Source of the DNA: Gemmata obscuriglobus
Lineage (GTDB): Bacteria > Planctomycetota > Planctomycetia > Gemmatales > Gemmataceae
DNA length: 32,000 nucleotides
NCBI RefSeq assembly: GCF_008065095.1
Contig: NZ_CP042911.1
Span: 8,850,001-8,882,000 of the forward strand
Direction of reading: 5' to 3'
The notes below the pieces were generated by a model that had not been told where the DNA came from, did no database searches, and saw nothing but the letters and a program-made list of their open reading frames with translations. The position numbers and the translations under genes were made by a program. Shown piece after piece: positions 15,763 through 31,674 of the stretch. The first letter of the stretch is position 1, and each line of letters opens with the position of its first letter.

Positions 15763-15794
15763 GGCTCATCCTCAAATCAAAAGAGGTTAGAAAA

Positions 15795-15892
15795 CAGAGG
15801 TCAGAAGCAAGAACCCCACCCCGTGCCAAGGAAGGTGGAGGTGACGAAACCGAGGCCGGCATTAGCTCCCGGCCTCCGGTCCACTGACCTCT
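15795..15892 (-). repeat. Spacer hairpin, word family 3 (AGAGGTCAGAAG / CTGACCTCT), rpoA-rplQ spacer
   Basis: AGAGGTCAG (15796-15804) is perfectly complementary to CTGACCTCT (15884-15892). The left side is a 14-nt tandem (agaggttagaaaac agaggtcagaagca). A nested perfect 8-bp hairpin is GAGGCCGG (15852-15859) / CCGGCCTC (15869-15876). Confidence 0.75.
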
Positions 15893-15920
15893 CGGATCAA
15901 ACGTGCGGCATCAGCCGCGG

Positions 15921-16931
15921 TTACGACCGGCGCGGCGGCAGACGCATTCCGAGCGCCAGCCCCCGCTCTTCCAGCTTCGACTTCACTTCTCGGAGCGTCG
16001 TTTCGCCGAAGTTCCGTACTTCGAGCAACTCCTCGGACGTCCGAATCACGAGATCGCGAACGGTCTGGATGCCTTCGGTTTCGAGGCAGTTGGTCGCCCG
16101 CACCGACAGGTCGAGTTCCGCAAGGCTCATGTTGAGCTTGCGCTCGAGCTCGGCGTCCTGTTGGTCGCGCACCGACGCGTTCGGCCCGATCTCGATGGGG
16201 CCGTCGTCCAGTTGCAGTTCCGGCCCCGGCTCCGTGTACTGCACGAACGGGTTCAGGTGCTTGCGGAGGATCTTCGCCGCCTCGACGATCGCCATTTGCG
16301 GAGCGAGCGTGCCGTTGGTCCAGATCTCCATCACGAGCCGGTCGTAGTTCGTCTTCTGACCGACGCGGGTCTCTTCGATGTCGTACTTCACCCGCACGAC
16401 CGGCGAGAAGCTCGAATCGACCGGGATCACCCCGACCTCGCGGTCCTTGCCGGCGTTGTCGTCGGCCGTGCGATACCCGCGGCCGTTTTCGACCGTCATT
16501 TCCATCACGAACGGCACGTCGCTCGTGAGGGTCGCGATGTGGTGCTCGGGGTTGATGATCTGGATCGTTTCGTCGTGCTGCACGTCCACGCCGCGGACGG
16601 CGCCGGCTTCGTGCTTCTGGATGCGAATCGTCTTCGGCTGGTCAGAAAGGTTCTTAACGACCAAACTCTTGACGTTCAGGATGATGTCCGTGACGTCTTC
16701 AACCACGCCGGTGATGGTCGAGATCTCGTGCTGTACGCCCTGGATCTTGACCCGCGTGATCGCGCTGCCTTCCAGCGACGACAGCAGGATGCGACGGAGG
16801 CTGTTGCCGATCGTCATCCCGAAGCCCTTCTCGAAGGGCTCGGCGTAGAACTTGCCGTAGGTGTCCGAAAGGTTGGAGCGGTCGGCCTGAACCCGGTTCG
16901 GCAACTCCAGCCCACGCCAGCGAACGCGCAT
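15921..16931 (-). CDS. rpoA: DNA-directed RNA polymerase alpha subunit (336 aa)
   Basis: [69 protein letters not shown]...; C-terminal domain ...[21 protein letters not shown]. The track ORF (to 17153) was trimmed to ATG at 16931, because the upstream 74 codons cover the spacer hairpin and abut the rpsD stop. Confidence 0.95.
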
Positions 16932-17043
16932 TCTCAATTCTCCTGCCGTCGGCTTTCCGCTACCCCACCTGCGACCGAGCGGGGAGCGAACCAAACGGCG
17001 ACCTGTCGAACAAGACCGGCGATCGCGGCCGGAAAGTTGAAGA

Positions 17044-17141
17044 GTATTCACCGCAGAGGGCACGAGAGAGCGCAGAGAGAAAACACTGTTCTGAACTTTT
17101 GTTTCCTCTCTGCGTCCTCTCGCGCCCTCTGCGGTGAATAC
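17044..17141 (-). repeat. Long spacer hairpin (42-nt arms, 14-nt loop), 11 nt after the rpsD stop
   Basis: GTATTCACCGCAGAGGGCACGAGAGAGCGCAGAGAGAAAACA (17044-17085) vs TGTTTCCTCTCTGCGTCCTCTCGCGCCCTCTGCGGTGAATAC (17100-17141). Pairing checked position by position: 38 Watson-Crick pairs, 1 wobble, 3 mismatches. Confidence 0.9.
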
Positions 17142-17152
17142 TGTATCCGCCA

Positions 17153-17791
17153 CTATCGGGTAGCGATTTCGATGATCAACTGCTCGCGGATGTCGGTAAT
17201 CCGCTCGTCCACGTCCTGCCGGGTCGGGGTGCGGTTCATGCGCCCTTCAGGCTGGTCCTGTGTGCCGGTCAGTTCGAGAAAATCGGGGATGCGAACGGTC
17301 CCCTTCGCCAGGGTGTCGCGGGCCATTTTCAGGCTGCTGTCCCGGGTCTTCACCTTGATGACATCGCCGGGCTTGACCAGCATGCTCGCGATGTCGCACT
17401 TCACCCCGTTCACCAGAATGTGTCCGTGGGACACCATCTGGCGCGCGCTGGTGCGGTTCACGGCAAAGCCGAGCCGGTGGACAACGTTGTCCAGTCGGCG
17501 CTCCAGGATCGACAGCAGTTGCTCGCCGGTGTTCCCGACGGCCTTCGTCGCGAGGCCGTAGTAGCGGCGGAACTGGGCCTCGAGCACCCCGTAGAACCGC
17601 TTGAGCTTCTGCTTCTCGCGGAGCCGGATGCCGTACTCGGAGGTCTTGCTGCGGCGCAGCCCGTGCATACCGGGCGGCGGCTTTTGCTTGTCGATCGGGC
17701 ACTTCGGCCCGAAGCACCGGTCGCCTTTGAGGTACAGCTTCATCTGGTCCCGCCTGCACATCTTGCAGACGGGATCGGTGTTACGTGCCAT
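17153..17791 (-). CDS. rpsD: 30S ribosomal protein S4 (212 aa, Cys-containing N-terminus)
   Basis: [35 protein letters not shown]...; S4 RNA-binding domain ...[32 protein letters not shown]. Confidence 0.96.
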
Positions 17792-17926
17792 GTCGCCTGT
17801 GAGGGCTCGAACCAGGGGTCAAGGTGGCCCCGCAAAGCGGGACCGGTTTCGGTGACCGTCCTCGGCTGTCAGTCGCACGCCCGGCGAACCCCAGAGTCGG
17901 AACAGGCGTCGTGCTAACAACAGTGT

Positions 17927-17963
17927 GGTCAGCGGGGGTTGCCGGAGCAACACCCCACTGACC
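17927..17963 (-). repeat. Spacer hairpin in the rpsK-rpsD spacer
   Basis: GGTCAGCGGGGGTTGC (17927-17942), loop cgga, GCAACACCCCACTGACC (17947-17963): about 14 bp with one mismatch and one bulge. Confidence 0.65.
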
Positions 17964-30119: not shown

Positions 30120-30140
30120 CGCCGCTCTCCCTCACACACA

Positions 30141-30238
30141 AGAGAGGTCAGAGGTCAGAAGGCAGAGGGCCAGAAGTTCCCGGCCACGCTCCGCCCACAG
30201 CGCTCTTTCCGACCTCAGGCCTCTGATCGCTGACTTCC
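30141..30238 (-). repeat. Spacer hairpin, word family 3 (GAGGTCA heptamer array vs TGACCTC-like), rpsC-rplP spacer
   Basis: Left array gaggtca gaggtca gaaggca gagggcc agaag (30144-30176). GAGGTCAGAAGG (30151-30162) pairs with CTTTCCGACCTC (30205-30216): 10 Watson-Crick pairs, 1 wobble, 1 mismatch. Complementarity outside this core is weaker. Confidence 0.65.
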
Positions 30239-30265
30239 AGCAGTTGCAATCGGAATCCGCAGCCT

Positions 30266-31039
30266 TTAGCGAGGACCGCCGCCGCCACCGTCCCCCCGCC
30301 CACCGCGACGGGGCCGCCGCCGCTGCTGCTGGCCCGCACCGGCTTCGGTCGTATCGGCAATGTCACCGGTCAGGTAGTCGCCCTGGTTCACCCAGGCCTT
30401 GATACCGATGTTGCCCTGCGGCGTGACGGCCTCAGCGAACCCGTACTCGACCTTCACCCGCAGCGTCGACAGCGGGATGGAGCCTTCCATCCCCTTCTCG
30501 CAGCGGGCCATTTCGGCGCCGCCGAGGCGGCCCGACAGTTGGAGCTTCACGCCCTTCGCGCCGCCTTCCATCGCCCGCTGCATGGCCTGCTTCATCGTGC
30601 GACGGAAGCTCGCCCGCTTTTCGAGCTGCTCCGCGATGTCTTCCGCGATGAGCTGGGCGTCGATCTCCGGCCGGGTCACCTCGACGGTCTTCACCTCGAT
30701 GTGCCGCCGGGTGAGCTTCTCGAGCGCTTTGGTCAGCTTCTCGATCTTCTCGCCCTTCTTGCCGATGATCGCACCGACCCGGCTGGACGCGACCACGACG
30801 GTCACCCGCTCCCGGGTCCGCTCGATGCGGATGTCGGCGATGGCGGGCCGCTGCTCTTTGCGGTCCTTCTTGTTCGTCAGGTACTTCTGGATGAACGCGC
30901 GGATGGCGACGTCTTCCAGCAGCAGGTCCGCGAACGAGTTGCCGTCGGCGGCCGGGGAGTTCTTGGGCGCGTACCACGTACTCCGCCACGGCCGCATGAT
31001 GCCGGTCCGGAACCCCGTCGGTCGAACTTTCTGGCCCAT
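30266..31039 (-). CDS. rpsC: 30S ribosomal protein S3 (257 aa, Arg/Gly-rich C-terminal tail)
   Basis: MGQKVRPTGFRTGIMRPWRSTWYAPK...; KH domain ...VVVASSRVGAIIGKKGEKIEKL...; tail QQQRRRPRRGGRGDGGGGGPR. Confidence 0.97.
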   Translation of the reverse strand: MGQKVRPTGFRTGIMRPWRSTWYAPKNSPAADGNSFADLLLEDVAIRAFIQKYLTNKKDRKEQRPAIADIRIERTRERVTVVVASSRVGAIIGKKGEKIEKLTKALEKLTRRHIEVKTVEVTRPEIDAQLIAEDIAEQLEKRASFRRTMKQAMQRAMEGGAKGVKLQLSGRLGGAEMARCEKGMEGSIPLSTLRVKVEYGFAEAVTPQGNIGIKAWVNQGDYLTGDIADTTEAGAGQQQRRRPRRGGRGDGGGGGPR

Positions 31040-31147
31040 ATCAAAAACCCCGGTGTCTTCCTATCTTTCGCCGACCGCACGACGCCTGGAGTGTAACAGG
31101 CGAGGGGCCGGACCGGCCGGCCCCCAGCACTACGCTTTTTGCACCGC

Positions 31148-31549
31148 TCACGCCGTCGGAGCAACGGTCTCGGCTGGCGTCGTCGCAGCGGACGGAGCCG
31201 GAACAGGCTCGCTTGCCGCCGGATCGGACAGCGTCACGTGAATGTGCGACATCCGTCGCAGGATACCGAACGCGGTGCCACGAGCGCGGGGCTGGATCCG
31301 CTTGAACGTCGGCGCGCCGTCGACGCGGCACTCCGAAACGATCAGGCTGTCCGGGTCCGGACACTCGCGGTCGTCGGCGTTGCCGTACGCGCTCTTCACA
31401 ACGGCCAGGAGCAACTTCGCTCCGCGGTTGTGGTAGAAGGTCAGCAGTTGGAGCGCCTCGTCCACGTTCTTACCGCGGATCAGGTCGGCGAAGAGCCGAA
31501 TCTTACGCGGGCCGACGTCGGCGAACCGGTGAATCGCTTTGTAGTCCAT
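31148..31549 (-). CDS. rplV: 50S ribosomal protein L22 (133 aa, Pro/Ala-rich tail)
   Basis: MDYKAIHRFADVGPRKIRLFADLIRGKNVDEALQLLTF...RVDGAPTFKRIQPRARGTAFGILRRMSHIHVTLS. The track ORF was trimmed to ATG at 31549. Confidence 0.95.
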   Translation of the reverse strand: MDYKAIHRFADVGPRKIRLFADLIRGKNVDEALQLLTFYHNRGAKLLLAVVKSAYGNADDRECPDPDSLIVSECRVDGAPTFKRIQPRARGTAFGILRRMSHIHVTLSDPAASEPVPAPSAATTPAETVAPTA

Positions 31550-31555
31550 AGCAAT

Positions 31556-31667
31556 CAGTGGCCAGTGTGCCGTCGGCAGTGCTGTTCGCGACATCGGGTG
31601 CCGTTGTCACCACGCGACAACGTCTCGGTCGGTCGGCACTGCCCACTGCCCACCAACCACTGCCCAC
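31556..31667 (-). repeat. Spacer hairpin, CAGTGNN / CACTGCC heptamer arrays, rpsS-rplV spacer
   Basis: Left cagtggc cagtgtg ccgtcgg cagtgct (31556-31583). Right GGCACTGCC CACTGCC CACCAAC CACTGCC CAC (31635-31667). GCCGTCGGCAGTGC pairs with GCACTGCCCACTGC-type sequence with 2 mismatches in 14. The arms lie 6 nt from the rplV ATG and 7 nt from the rpsS stop. Confidence 0.78.
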
Positions 31668-31674
31668 TTTTTCG

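Follow-up and report, generated by a model that had tools for sequence, protein, structure and literature searches.

Stop-proximal hairpins of paired heptamer arrays in the long ribosomal-protein gene spacers of Gemmata obscuriglobus and its relatives

Introduction

The STRR (short, tandemly repeated and repetitive) sequences of cyanobacteria are built of 7-bp repeats, and between the co-transcribed genes hupS and hupL they form hairpins for which a role in transcript stability or in coupling has been proposed (PMC2670836). These hairpins are the closest precedent for the elements described here, which we analyzed in a stretch of 32,000 nucleotides (nt) of the planctomycete Gemmata obscuriglobus (contig NZ_CP042911.1, positions 8,850,001 to 8,882,000; hereafter the window), where paired arrays of 7-nt words form hairpins between the genes of the ribosomal-protein cluster. 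As in STRR, the units are tandem, 7 bp long and intergenic, several word families occur in one genome, and complementary arrays give a hairpin between co-transcribed genes. The words can also be alike, GTGGTCA here and TTGGTCA in cyanobacteria. STRR belong to (heterocystous) cyanobacteria, whereas the present elements belong to Planctomycetota with 65–70% GC; unlike STRR, they fill nearly every junction of the S10/spc/alpha cluster and are interchangeable there with unique GC-rich palindromes. To our knowledge, anchoring at the stop codon, a polarity in which the G-rich arm comes first, and turnover faster than synonymous change are unreported for STRR. Vioque, in 1997, is said to have described STRR sequences within cyanobacterial RNase P RNA genes.

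Direct heptamer repeats are also known from bacteria. Repeats of the word TAACTGA in Beggiatoaceae, cyanobacteria and Bacteroidetes lie a few nt before start codons, including those of ribosomal protein genes; a post-transcriptional role is suspected for them, and one inverted case occurs among 170 sets (PMC4679880). In Nostoc, direct heptamer repeats stand next to start codons (bioRxiv 10.1101/2022.06.06.494920). TAACTGA-like units appear in 3' arms of the elements described here (e.g. in loci L004 and L037 of the comparison set below), whose arrays also lie near start codons (median 12.5 nt). The TAACTGA repeats, however, consist of essentially one word without a partner array, whereas the present elements are inverted pairs drawn from dozens of words.

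Repetitive extragenic palindromic (REP) elements occur in Planctomycetes as tagged palindromic units (PMC3733652). Like REP, BIME and REPIN sequences, the elements described here are intergenic, mostly 3' of genes, absent from the promoter side, repeated in the genome and species-specific, and they are inverted doublets of ~100 nt that fold as hairpins. A REP unit is itself a palindrome of 20–40 bp that carries a GTAG or CGTC tag and follows one consensus throughout the genome, whereas the arms here are non-palindromic arrays with little self-complementarity, no consistent tag at their ends, a cloud of words in place of a consensus, and unrelated loops. With miniature inverted-repeat transposable elements (MITEs) they share terminal inverted arms of ~30 nt, a length of ~100 nt, presence or absence in close relatives, and an RNA hairpin. 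Copies of a MITE conserve their internal sequence, whereas the loops here are unrelated even within the single genome of locus L053, and the arms are tandem arrays.

REP elements stabilize upstream mRNA and affect translation when they lie near a stop codon. The REP stem-loop of Escherichia coli malE-malF and the stem-loop of Rhodobacter puf resemble the present hairpins in being intercistronic, just past a stop codon and free of a U-tract. They are single, conserved and experimentally characterized, whereas the present hairpins are a hypervariable family at ~60% of junctions, known from sequence. The S10/spc/alpha cluster itself is a textbook case of tightly packed, translationally coupled genes. 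An earlier note on this stretch, which drew attention to its hairpin-filled spacers, knew of no description of such an architecture. For Planctomycetes our literature search likewise found none, its coverage being incomplete and the result absence of evidence only; for hairpins of this general type, the published hupS–hupL case (PMC2670836) is a description.

Results

Long spacers with stable hairpins in the ribosomal-protein cluster

The whole window has a high GC content (0.58–0.75) and all its genes, like the elements and the terminator described below, lie on the minus strand. The ribosomal cluster at 15196–31947 reads rpsS, rplV, rpsC, rplP, rpmC, rpsQ, rplN, rplX, rplE, rpsN, rpsH, rplF, rplR, rpsE, rplO, secY, adk, tRNA-Ile(UAU), map, rpmJ, rpsM, rpsK, rpsD, rpoA and rplQ. 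Its spacers measure 80–221 nt, with a gap of 1033 nt between secY and adk. Three junctions are compact, exactly as the earlier note had it: the TAATG overlaps of rpmC/rpsQ at 29083 and of rpsE/rplO at 24221, and the rpsN–rpsH spacer of 24 nt at 26629–26652, which carries GGAGGA. The rplQ protein is identical in Gemmata obscuriglobus GCA_000171775.1, and a look-up by rplQ led to nothing beyond the window's own DNA, in three public contigs with 99.99–100% identity.

We folded the 19 spacers of the window in the mRNA sense against 200 dinucleotide shuffles each, a check that the earlier note had suggested. Eleven of the 19 gave z < −2, the lowest values being −11.4 for rplO–secY and −10.6 for rpsD–rpoA, both of which are near-perfect palindromes of 40–45 bp. 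The inverted arms on which that note had been based were found again by an inverted-repeat finder (e.g. 17043–17085/17100–17142 and 23583–23622/23629–23668), and the arm ends that it had placed next to stop codons match the called stops to within 0–11 nt. Tandem Repeats Finder (TRF) recovered the word arrays as TGCGGAA x4.0, AATGCGG x4.3, AGAGGTC x3.7, AGTGTG x4.5, CACTGCC x4.6, CAGAGGA x4.4 and AACACCA x2.7. The idea that such stems can slip in 7-nt registers also held up: in the best register the arms reach an identity of 0.89, a shift of ±7 nt leaves 0.83 and one of ±14 nt leaves 0.81, and out of phase the value is 0.25.

A clade-wide family of inverted heptamer arrays

We compared the window to 80 orthologous loci from Gemmataceae genomes (rpsE identity 69–96%; 1.17 Mb in all), with ~20 kb sampled per genome and centered on this one operon; these loci, and the metagenome contigs below, carry L numbers. 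In Gemmata-like genomes most junctions hold ~100–200 nt, whereas in distant Gemmataceae they hold 10–14 nt with a GAGG Shine-Dalgarno (SD) motif. The long spacers are a lineage-specific expansion. Across ten relatives, 135 spacers folded with a mean z of −3.75 and 70% of them at z < −2, compared to a mean of −0.51 and 13% for length-matched coding controls.

The commonest tandem-repeat period in the Gemmataceae loci is 7 nt (420 arrays in the 1.17 Mb), although 7 is not a multiple of three, and 367 of 449 arrays of period 7 or 14 lie in co-directional intergenic regions. Where arrays are paired, the pairing is inverted: the 80 loci contain 105 inverted pairs and 4 direct ones, the period is 7 in 93 of the 105, and 98 of 104 inverted pairs sit between co-directional genes. 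The 93 elements use 56 distinct canonical words, which form a continuous cloud with several words in each genome and at least five in the window.

The family is not specific to ribosomal genes. The earlier note had described the architecture as one of the ribosomal operon, but the window itself holds an element of the same type at 2981–3087, between two large genes resembling polyketide synthase (PKS) or polyunsaturated fatty acid (PUFA) synthase genes. Its layout is a TAG stop codon, (GTGTTTG)n, a loop, (CAAACAC)n and ATG; TRF gives GTGTTTG x5.1 and AAACACC x3.9, and z is −5.8. A metagenome scan with four GTGTTNN units as the query found such arrays in contigs of 31–71% GC, with the paired form mainly in high-GC contigs. 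The paired elements there adjoin non-ribosomal genes (galE-like, csrA-like and others), mostly from stop to start, with one in a divergent region and one between rplF and rplR.

In many metagenome contigs that are unlike Gemmata (L086, L088, L095, L124, L125, L171 and L189), a heptamer array rich in G and T stands before a C-rich one whose word differs and is not complementary. It follows that heptamer arrays are widespread and that, where they cluster, a hairpin is not always the result.

Anatomy and position of the module

The arms have a median length of 30 nt and enclose loops of 36 nt (median). They are AT-richer than both loops and genome, with 47% GC compared to 59% in loops, and each is depleted in one base, the 5' arm containing 13% C and the 3' arm 12% G. 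The 5' array begins a median of 4.5 nt past the stop codon (interquartile range (IQR) 1–7), while a median of 12.5 nt separates the end of the 3' array from the start codon (IQR 7–35). Hairpins of at least 12 bp show the same anchoring in 21 Gemmata-like loci, where 156 of 248 long junctions have a hairpin whose base lies at most 15 nt from the stop codon (median 3 nt). Overall, the distance from hairpin to start codon is a median of 11–12.5 nt with a wide spread, compared to 3–4.5 nt to the stop codon. In front of rpsN, rplF, rpoA and rpsD, genes with a conserved upstream motif, the hairpin lies upstream of that motif and adjoins the stop codon.

Array hairpins and unique GC-rich palindromes are interchangeable in one slot across species. 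The two long unique palindromes of the window, searched against the 80 related loci, gave self-matches only, apart from one match of 23 nt. The arms are indeed free of SD sequences, as had been observed; in 30 of 68 elements, however, the stretch from the 3' arm to the start codon contains an SD-like 4-mer.

Terminator-like sites show no enrichment (18 compared to 16.8 expected) and none of them coincides with an array hairpin; sigma-70-like promoter sites number 0 compared to 1.4 expected, a count to be read with the proviso that planctomycete promoters may differ from the sigma-70 consensus. The hairpins lack the U-tract that follows the GC-rich stem of an intrinsic terminator, so transcription should read through them. 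For contrast, rplQ is followed at 15135–15185 by a canonical intrinsic terminator, a perfect 21-bp stem and then TTTTT, which to judge by this sequence is the end of the transcription unit, and U-tract terminators thus appear to be used by this organism. In Rfam, tRNA alone passes the gathering threshold, and matches at E ≤ 1 are otherwise to generic long-hairpin (miRNA-precursor) models on both strands; no curated covariance model of a ribosomal-protein leader matched.

Two other roles were considered for the arrays. As backup stop codons in all frames they were dropped because TGA occurs in only 18 of the 93 words. Integron attC sites were dismissed, since the arrays are tandem, show no core-site pattern and are not gene cassettes.

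G-first polarity

In 79 elements the G-rich arm comes first, compared to 3 in which it comes second. Counting stems, the ratio of G-first to C-first is 115:11 for array stems and 162:79 for non-array stems; metagenome contigs give 15:0. Whichever DNA strand is read, the 5' arm is rich in G and T and the 3' arm in C and A. A reading of the 79:3 ratio as an orientation bias linked to transcription was rejected, because a palindrome reads G-first on either strand. Since an inverted repeat is the same on both strands, G-first and C-first elements are two classes that cannot be interconverted, and the asymmetry is intrinsic to the element.

Turnover of the modules

Comparison of orthologous spacers reveals that the architecture is kept and the word is not. 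The closest genome pairs are 80–96% identical at 4-fold sites; even there, the orthologous spacer does not contain the arms of an element (score 0.35 compared to 0.22 for the control), while the tail before the start codon is conserved in the same pairs (0.69). Module turnover is faster than synonymous change: whole modules come, go or are exchanged between genomes that remain 80–90% identical at 4-fold sites. Both replacement of the word and presence or absence of the module occur between L015 and L016, and whole modules are cleanly inserted or deleted at their stop-proximal edge, with the downstream leader untouched, in L022/L023, L022/L024, L033/L036 and L037/L039. In L022 (rplO–secY) and L015 (rpsQ–rplN) the module found in close relatives is absent with no visible replacement. 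The rpsD–rpoA and rplO–secY slots are hardly ever empty across species, but what occupies them is unrelated in sequence. GGCCCC flanks the L022/L023 indel on both sides, a microhomology that is the only candidate for a target-site duplication.

Within L053, four elements have near-identical arms of 31 nt, including the order of unit variants, and unrelated loops of 39–66 nt. Mismatches between paired arms are mostly transversions (146); the remainder comprise 63 of G·U type and 49 of A·C type (p = 0.22), with no wobble bias on the sense strand, in a test whose power is limited by the youth of the elements. Complementarity of an arm to its own partner is 0.91, compared to 0.88 to same-word arms of other elements (p = 0.07, marginal). 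The comparison of relatives that the earlier note had proposed thus brought out the turnover of arm words, but no signature of pairing-preserving substitution. Taken together, the turnover, the shared arms, the absence of wobble bias and the weak effect of the own partner indicate gain, loss and homogenization at the DNA level, and not purifying selection on a specific RNA helix.

Two simple models for the origin of the arms and loops did not hold. A model of inverted duplication gave a mirror register barely better than registers shifted by 7 nt, and the loop as a remnant of the ancestral spacer is at odds with loops that show no similarity to orthologous short spacers.

Further repeats are present in these spacers. 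In the close relative L039 the rplX–rplE spacer measures 322 nt, compared to 80 nt in L037, through a 242-nt insertion exactly at the stop codon; within the insertion, which is a composite palindromic element, a ~30-nt unit (GGCGAGCGGTGGGTGTAAGCCCACTGATT) is present twice in direct and once in inverted orientation. One palindrome arm, AACCGCGACCGTNAGGGAGCGGGTG, turns up in more than one spacer and in more than one species, and the short motif GAGCCGGGAGCGTCAGCGACCGGAG recurs just before several start codons; the spacers concerned are rpsD–rpoA in L014, rplO–secY in L020 and L004, and spacers of L006, L007, L015, L016 and L017. Arm and motif have the look of genuine dispersed repeats that form families separate from the arrays.

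Individual elements of the window

The rpsS–rplV spacer depends on the start codon of rplV. The earlier note had set the CACTGCC array against a complementary one; the complement exists, and falls in the first 15 codons of the long rplV open reading frame (31549–31594 region). Translation of rplV probably begins inside this frame, at the ATG of position 31549 (MDYKAIHRF...); the C-rich arm of the element makes up the 15 codons ahead of it. With this start the spacer spans 31550–31674 (125 nt) and holds paired heptamer arrays, recovered as an inverted repeat and by TRF, with a 5' arm of GGCAGTG type at 31636–31668, a 3' CACTGCC-like arm at 31556–31582 and a minimum free energy of −60.2. The stem of 45 bp runs from stop to start, beginning 6 nt past the former and ending 0 nt before the latter.

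In the rpsC–rplP spacer (30120–30265, z = −2.0) a GAGGTCA-type arm at ~30209–30234 faces a TGACCTC array at 30143–30168 (TRF AGAGGTC x3.7), and the SD-like GAGGGAGAG lies downstream of the 3' arm. The rplP–rpmC spacer (29551–29660, z = −4.8) has heptamer arms of ATGCGGR/YCCGCAT at 29611–29657 and 29558–29607 and a 39-bp stem that extends from 3 nt past the stop to 7 nt before the start, with GGTGA between arm and ATG; orthologous spacers of relatives contain hairpins built from other words. The same word family recurs as TGCGGAA x4 in rpsQ–rplN (28619–28711, z = −2.2), with arms at 28672–28707 and 28630–28664, a stem of 28 bp that begins 4 nt past the stop, and again GGTGA downstream of the arm.

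Words of the GTGTT type form two elements. In rplN–rplX (28147–28252, z = −3.8) the GTGTTKR/AAACAC arms at 28229–28250 and 28147–28169 are 90% complementary; the stem begins 2 nt past the stop, and its 3' arm adjoins the start without an SD motif. In rpsM–rpsK (18381–18495, z = −2.2) GTGTTTG/CAAACAC-type arms at 18468–18495 and 18384–18410 form a stem that reaches from 0 nt past the stop to 3 nt before the start, again without an SD motif. The rpoA–rplQ spacer (15763–15920, z = −2.6) pairs a GAGGTCA arm at 15881–15898 with a TGACCTC array at 15790–15807, and GAGGA follows downstream. Hexamers make up the outer array of rplF–rplR (25370–25479, z = −3.4; GTGAGT/ACTCAC at 25464–25481 and 25379–25408, TRF AGTGTG x4.5), which encloses an inner GC-rich stem at 25426–25468; the stem begins 0 nt past the stop. 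The rpmJ–rpsM spacer (18880–18976) has CAGAAGACAGA/TCTGTCCTCTG arms at 18935–18974 and 18887–18930 with a periodicity of 7, 14 and 21 nt, begins 2 nt past the stop, and folds with z = −1.8 in the sense and −4.4 in the antisense direction.

In rplO–secY, rpsD–rpoA and rplE–rpsN the hairpin is of the non-array type. The rplO–secY palindrome (23578–23672) is a unique stem of 42 bp, 6 nt past the stop and followed by AAGGA, with the lowest z of the window (−11.4); in relatives the same slot contains unrelated palindromes or array hairpins, and L022 differs from L023 by a clean indel of 78 nt. The rpsD–rpoA palindrome (17043–17142, z = −10.6), also unique, has 43–45 bp and begins 10 nt past the stop. 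A conserved rpoA leader at 16932–17041 follows it, and in 8 of the 8 relatives examined a long hairpin of unrelated sequence, array or unique, stands upstream of this conserved 3' part. The rplE–rpsN hairpin (26999–27071, z = −3.3) is 32 bp long, 4 nt past the stop, and is followed by a leader-like motif at 26930–26986 that is conserved in L012, L013, L016 and L019. Smaller hairpins are found in map–rpmJ (19129–19225; 27 bp, 1 nt past the stop) and in rpsK–rpsD (17911–17979; 25 bp, 20 nt past the stop), the latter followed by a conserved leader-like region before rpsD.

Non-array motifs thus lie between hairpin and start codon in front of rpsN (26930–26986), rplF (~26026–26085), rpoA (16932–17041) and rpsD (17794–17908). 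They are conserved across Gemmata-like genomes and absent from Rfam, and may be ribosomal-protein or rpoA leader RNAs.

Neighboring features

A tRNA-Ile with the unusual anticodon UAU (20173–20245) lies within the adk–map spacer, co-oriented with the operon; of 9 Gemmataceae loci checked, 7 have it in this position too. The secY–adk stretch at 20984–22016 (1033 nt) has the lowest GC content of the window (0.576); it gave neither a coding signal nor an Rfam match, and nothing in the 80 related loci is similar to it. The genes downstream of the ribosomal cluster are of TPR, LRR, NMO/FabD and PKS-like types. The large PKS/PUFA-synthase-like genes at 3088–9807 and 5–2980 (KS, AT, ACP, KR and DH domains) lie 3' of the cluster on the same strand, and an exact look-up of the PKS protein found no record.

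Discussion

The sequences establish that the modules exist, how they are built and placed, their turnover, their polarity and their lack of terminator features; the mechanism that generates them and their role in the RNA we infer. We propose that they are a clade-wide family of STRR/REP-like palindromic insertions placed right after stop codons, tolerated or exapted as end-of-cistron stem-loops and not tuned as coupling devices, an account that we consider on balance probable. The earlier note had raised a selfish MITE/REP-like family as one possibility. As to origin, this is favored by the wholesale gain, loss and replacement of modules, by the recurring arms and by the absence of wobble bias, whereas strict membership among MITEs or REP elements failed on the features compared in the Introduction.

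On this proposal each module would form an imperfect stem-loop of 20–45 bp in the mRNA, able to slip in 7-nt registers and to leave stop and start codon ~15–20 unpaired nt apart when folded. Its hairpin nature may be what lets an insertion survive in an essential operon. A role as a barrier to 3'-to-5' decay, or as an insulator that would keep a long untranslated spacer folded, is plausible.

Several observations weigh against insertion with mere tolerance. A model of neutral insertion does not predict that polarity should be so strictly G-first; candidate causes are co-transcriptional folding that hides the C-rich arm, a requirement for sequence poor in G beside the start codon, or a polar generating mechanism. 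At rplP–rpmC, rpsQ–rplN, rplN–rplX, rplF–rplR and rpsD–rpoA nearly every species has a hairpin and the sequence is never conserved, so that recurrent occupancy may reflect selection for the presence of a hairpin beyond tolerance. In L012 and L015 the arms are conserved while the loop between them has been replaced, which hints at constraint on the arms. Finally, neither a transposase, a clear target-site duplication nor a conserved internal sequence was found in the ~20–32 kb covered per genome, where no search for RAYT proteins was made.

The same occupancy keeps a dedicated function at the RNA level a serious rival, though in our view an unlikely one: the hairpins would be selected as RNase III/E processing sites or as barriers to 3' exonucleases that set the half-lives of segments individually, with sequence free as long as a long stem forms. 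The persistence of hairpins at the same junctions through full sequence turnover, a stem base at a median of 3 nt past the stop, stems of 20–45 bp, which suffice for recognition as double-stranded RNA, and the read-through expected without a U-tract all agree with it. So do relatives without arrays, which hold small GC-rich hairpins in the slot (e.g. in rpsQ–rplN spacers of 42–48 nt), and the stabilization of upstream mRNA by E. coli REP stem-loops. What tells against such selection is the arm record itself: mismatches show no bias of G·U over A·C and include many transversions, the complementarity of an arm to its own partner hardly exceeds that to other arms, several array hairpins reach only z −2 to −4, and modules are missing and unreplaced in close relatives (L022 rplO–secY, L015 rpsQ–rplN).

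Translational coupling, which the earlier note had put forward, fares less well, and we regard it as quite improbable. Here the hairpin would draw stop and start codon close to each other, a terminating ribosome would melt the stop-proximal arm and free the start-proximal one, and the same ribosome or one nearby would initiate on the next cistron; such devices would have taken the place of ancestral coupled junctions of 11 nt. Many elements do place their 5' arm 0–6 nt past the stop and their 3' arm 0–12 nt before the start; in about one third of cases the tail leaves no room for an SD motif, the 3' arm is G-poor, and SD-like motifs have a frequency of 56% in the Gemmata-like group, somewhat below the 67% of other Gemmataceae, whose short junctions of 10–14 nt with GAGG represent the ancestral state. 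In E. coli, rpmI and rplT are coupled over +52 nt through RNA unfolding (PMC12548453). The same work, however, found in a synthetic operon a negative correlation between coupling and structure just past the stop codon, and coupling that fades within 20 nt (PMC12548453). The modules are anchored at the stop codon and not at the start, and where a conserved leader intervenes the hairpin lies 80–120 nt before the start (rplE–rpsN, rpsD–rpoA, rpsH–rplF). Moreover, the SD-like motifs counted above, like these leaders, lie outside the hairpin, elements also occur in convergent and divergent regions, and substitutions carry no pairing-preserving signature.

A third explanation sees in the arrays tandem sites for a protein that reads ~7 nt per domain, the candidates being S1 or a protein with a cold-shock domain on RNA, or else a protein that binds DNA, with the hairpin as a secondary consequence. 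It would account for the strict 7-nt periodicity, with in-phase identity of 0.81–0.89 in all registers compared to 0.25 out of phase, and for the unit order common to the arms of one genome (L053). In Beggiatoaceae, TAACTGA repeats adjoin start codons in the way that the C/A-rich arrays do here, and S1, Csp and Csr proteins have been proposed to bind those repeats (PMC4679880); in Nostoc an unidentified heptamer-binding partner has been proposed (bioRxiv 10.1101/2022.06.06.494920). Yet unique non-array palindromes fill the same slots interchangeably and 56 words among 93 elements fit one sequence-specific binder poorly, which makes this explanation very unlikely. That the hairpins are terminators, attenuators or internal promoters dividing the cluster into many transcription units is scarcely credible: the 100–200-nt spacers are roomy enough and some hairpins are very stable, but terminator-like sites show no enrichment, sigma-70-like sites number zero (with the proviso on planctomycete promoters given above) and no hairpin has the U-tract seen after rplQ.

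A bolder version of the end-of-cistron account can be stated for the Gemmata clade, and we think it rather improbable: every polycistronic cistron would end in an obligatory stem-loop, free in sequence and fixed in polarity, in which the G/T arm is transcribed first and the C-rich arm is never exposed to Rho loading or nuclease entry, the arrays serving as evolvable, register-tolerant stems. G. obscuriglobus has been reported to separate transcription from translation, and such stem-loops would permit untranslated spacers of 100–200 nt where the two processes are separate. A polar mechanism might write G/T-rich repeats on both sides of a break, which would give the G-first geometry, arms common to several elements and unrelated loops. 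If true, this version would provide a testable function for the 35-year-old STRR puzzle.

For STRR-like hairpin repeats, stop anchoring, very fast turnover and G-first polarity are documented here, and the feature itself is real, with strong statistics and an extent that takes in the clade. Throughout this clade, nearly all junctions of the S10/spc/alpha cluster have grown tenfold by hypervariable palindromes, evidently tolerated. If they are merely tolerated, the rule for insertions into an essential operon would be a self-folding module right after the stop codon. If they are selected, they would amount to an unusual organization of bacterial mRNA, with a stem-loop per cistron end, which bears on long-lived or spatially uncoupled transcripts in Gemmata. 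The strict 7-nt period, the G-first polarity on both strands and the shared arms without shared loops offer a tractable route to the heptamer repeats of cyanobacteria, Beggiatoaceae and many uncultured bacteria.

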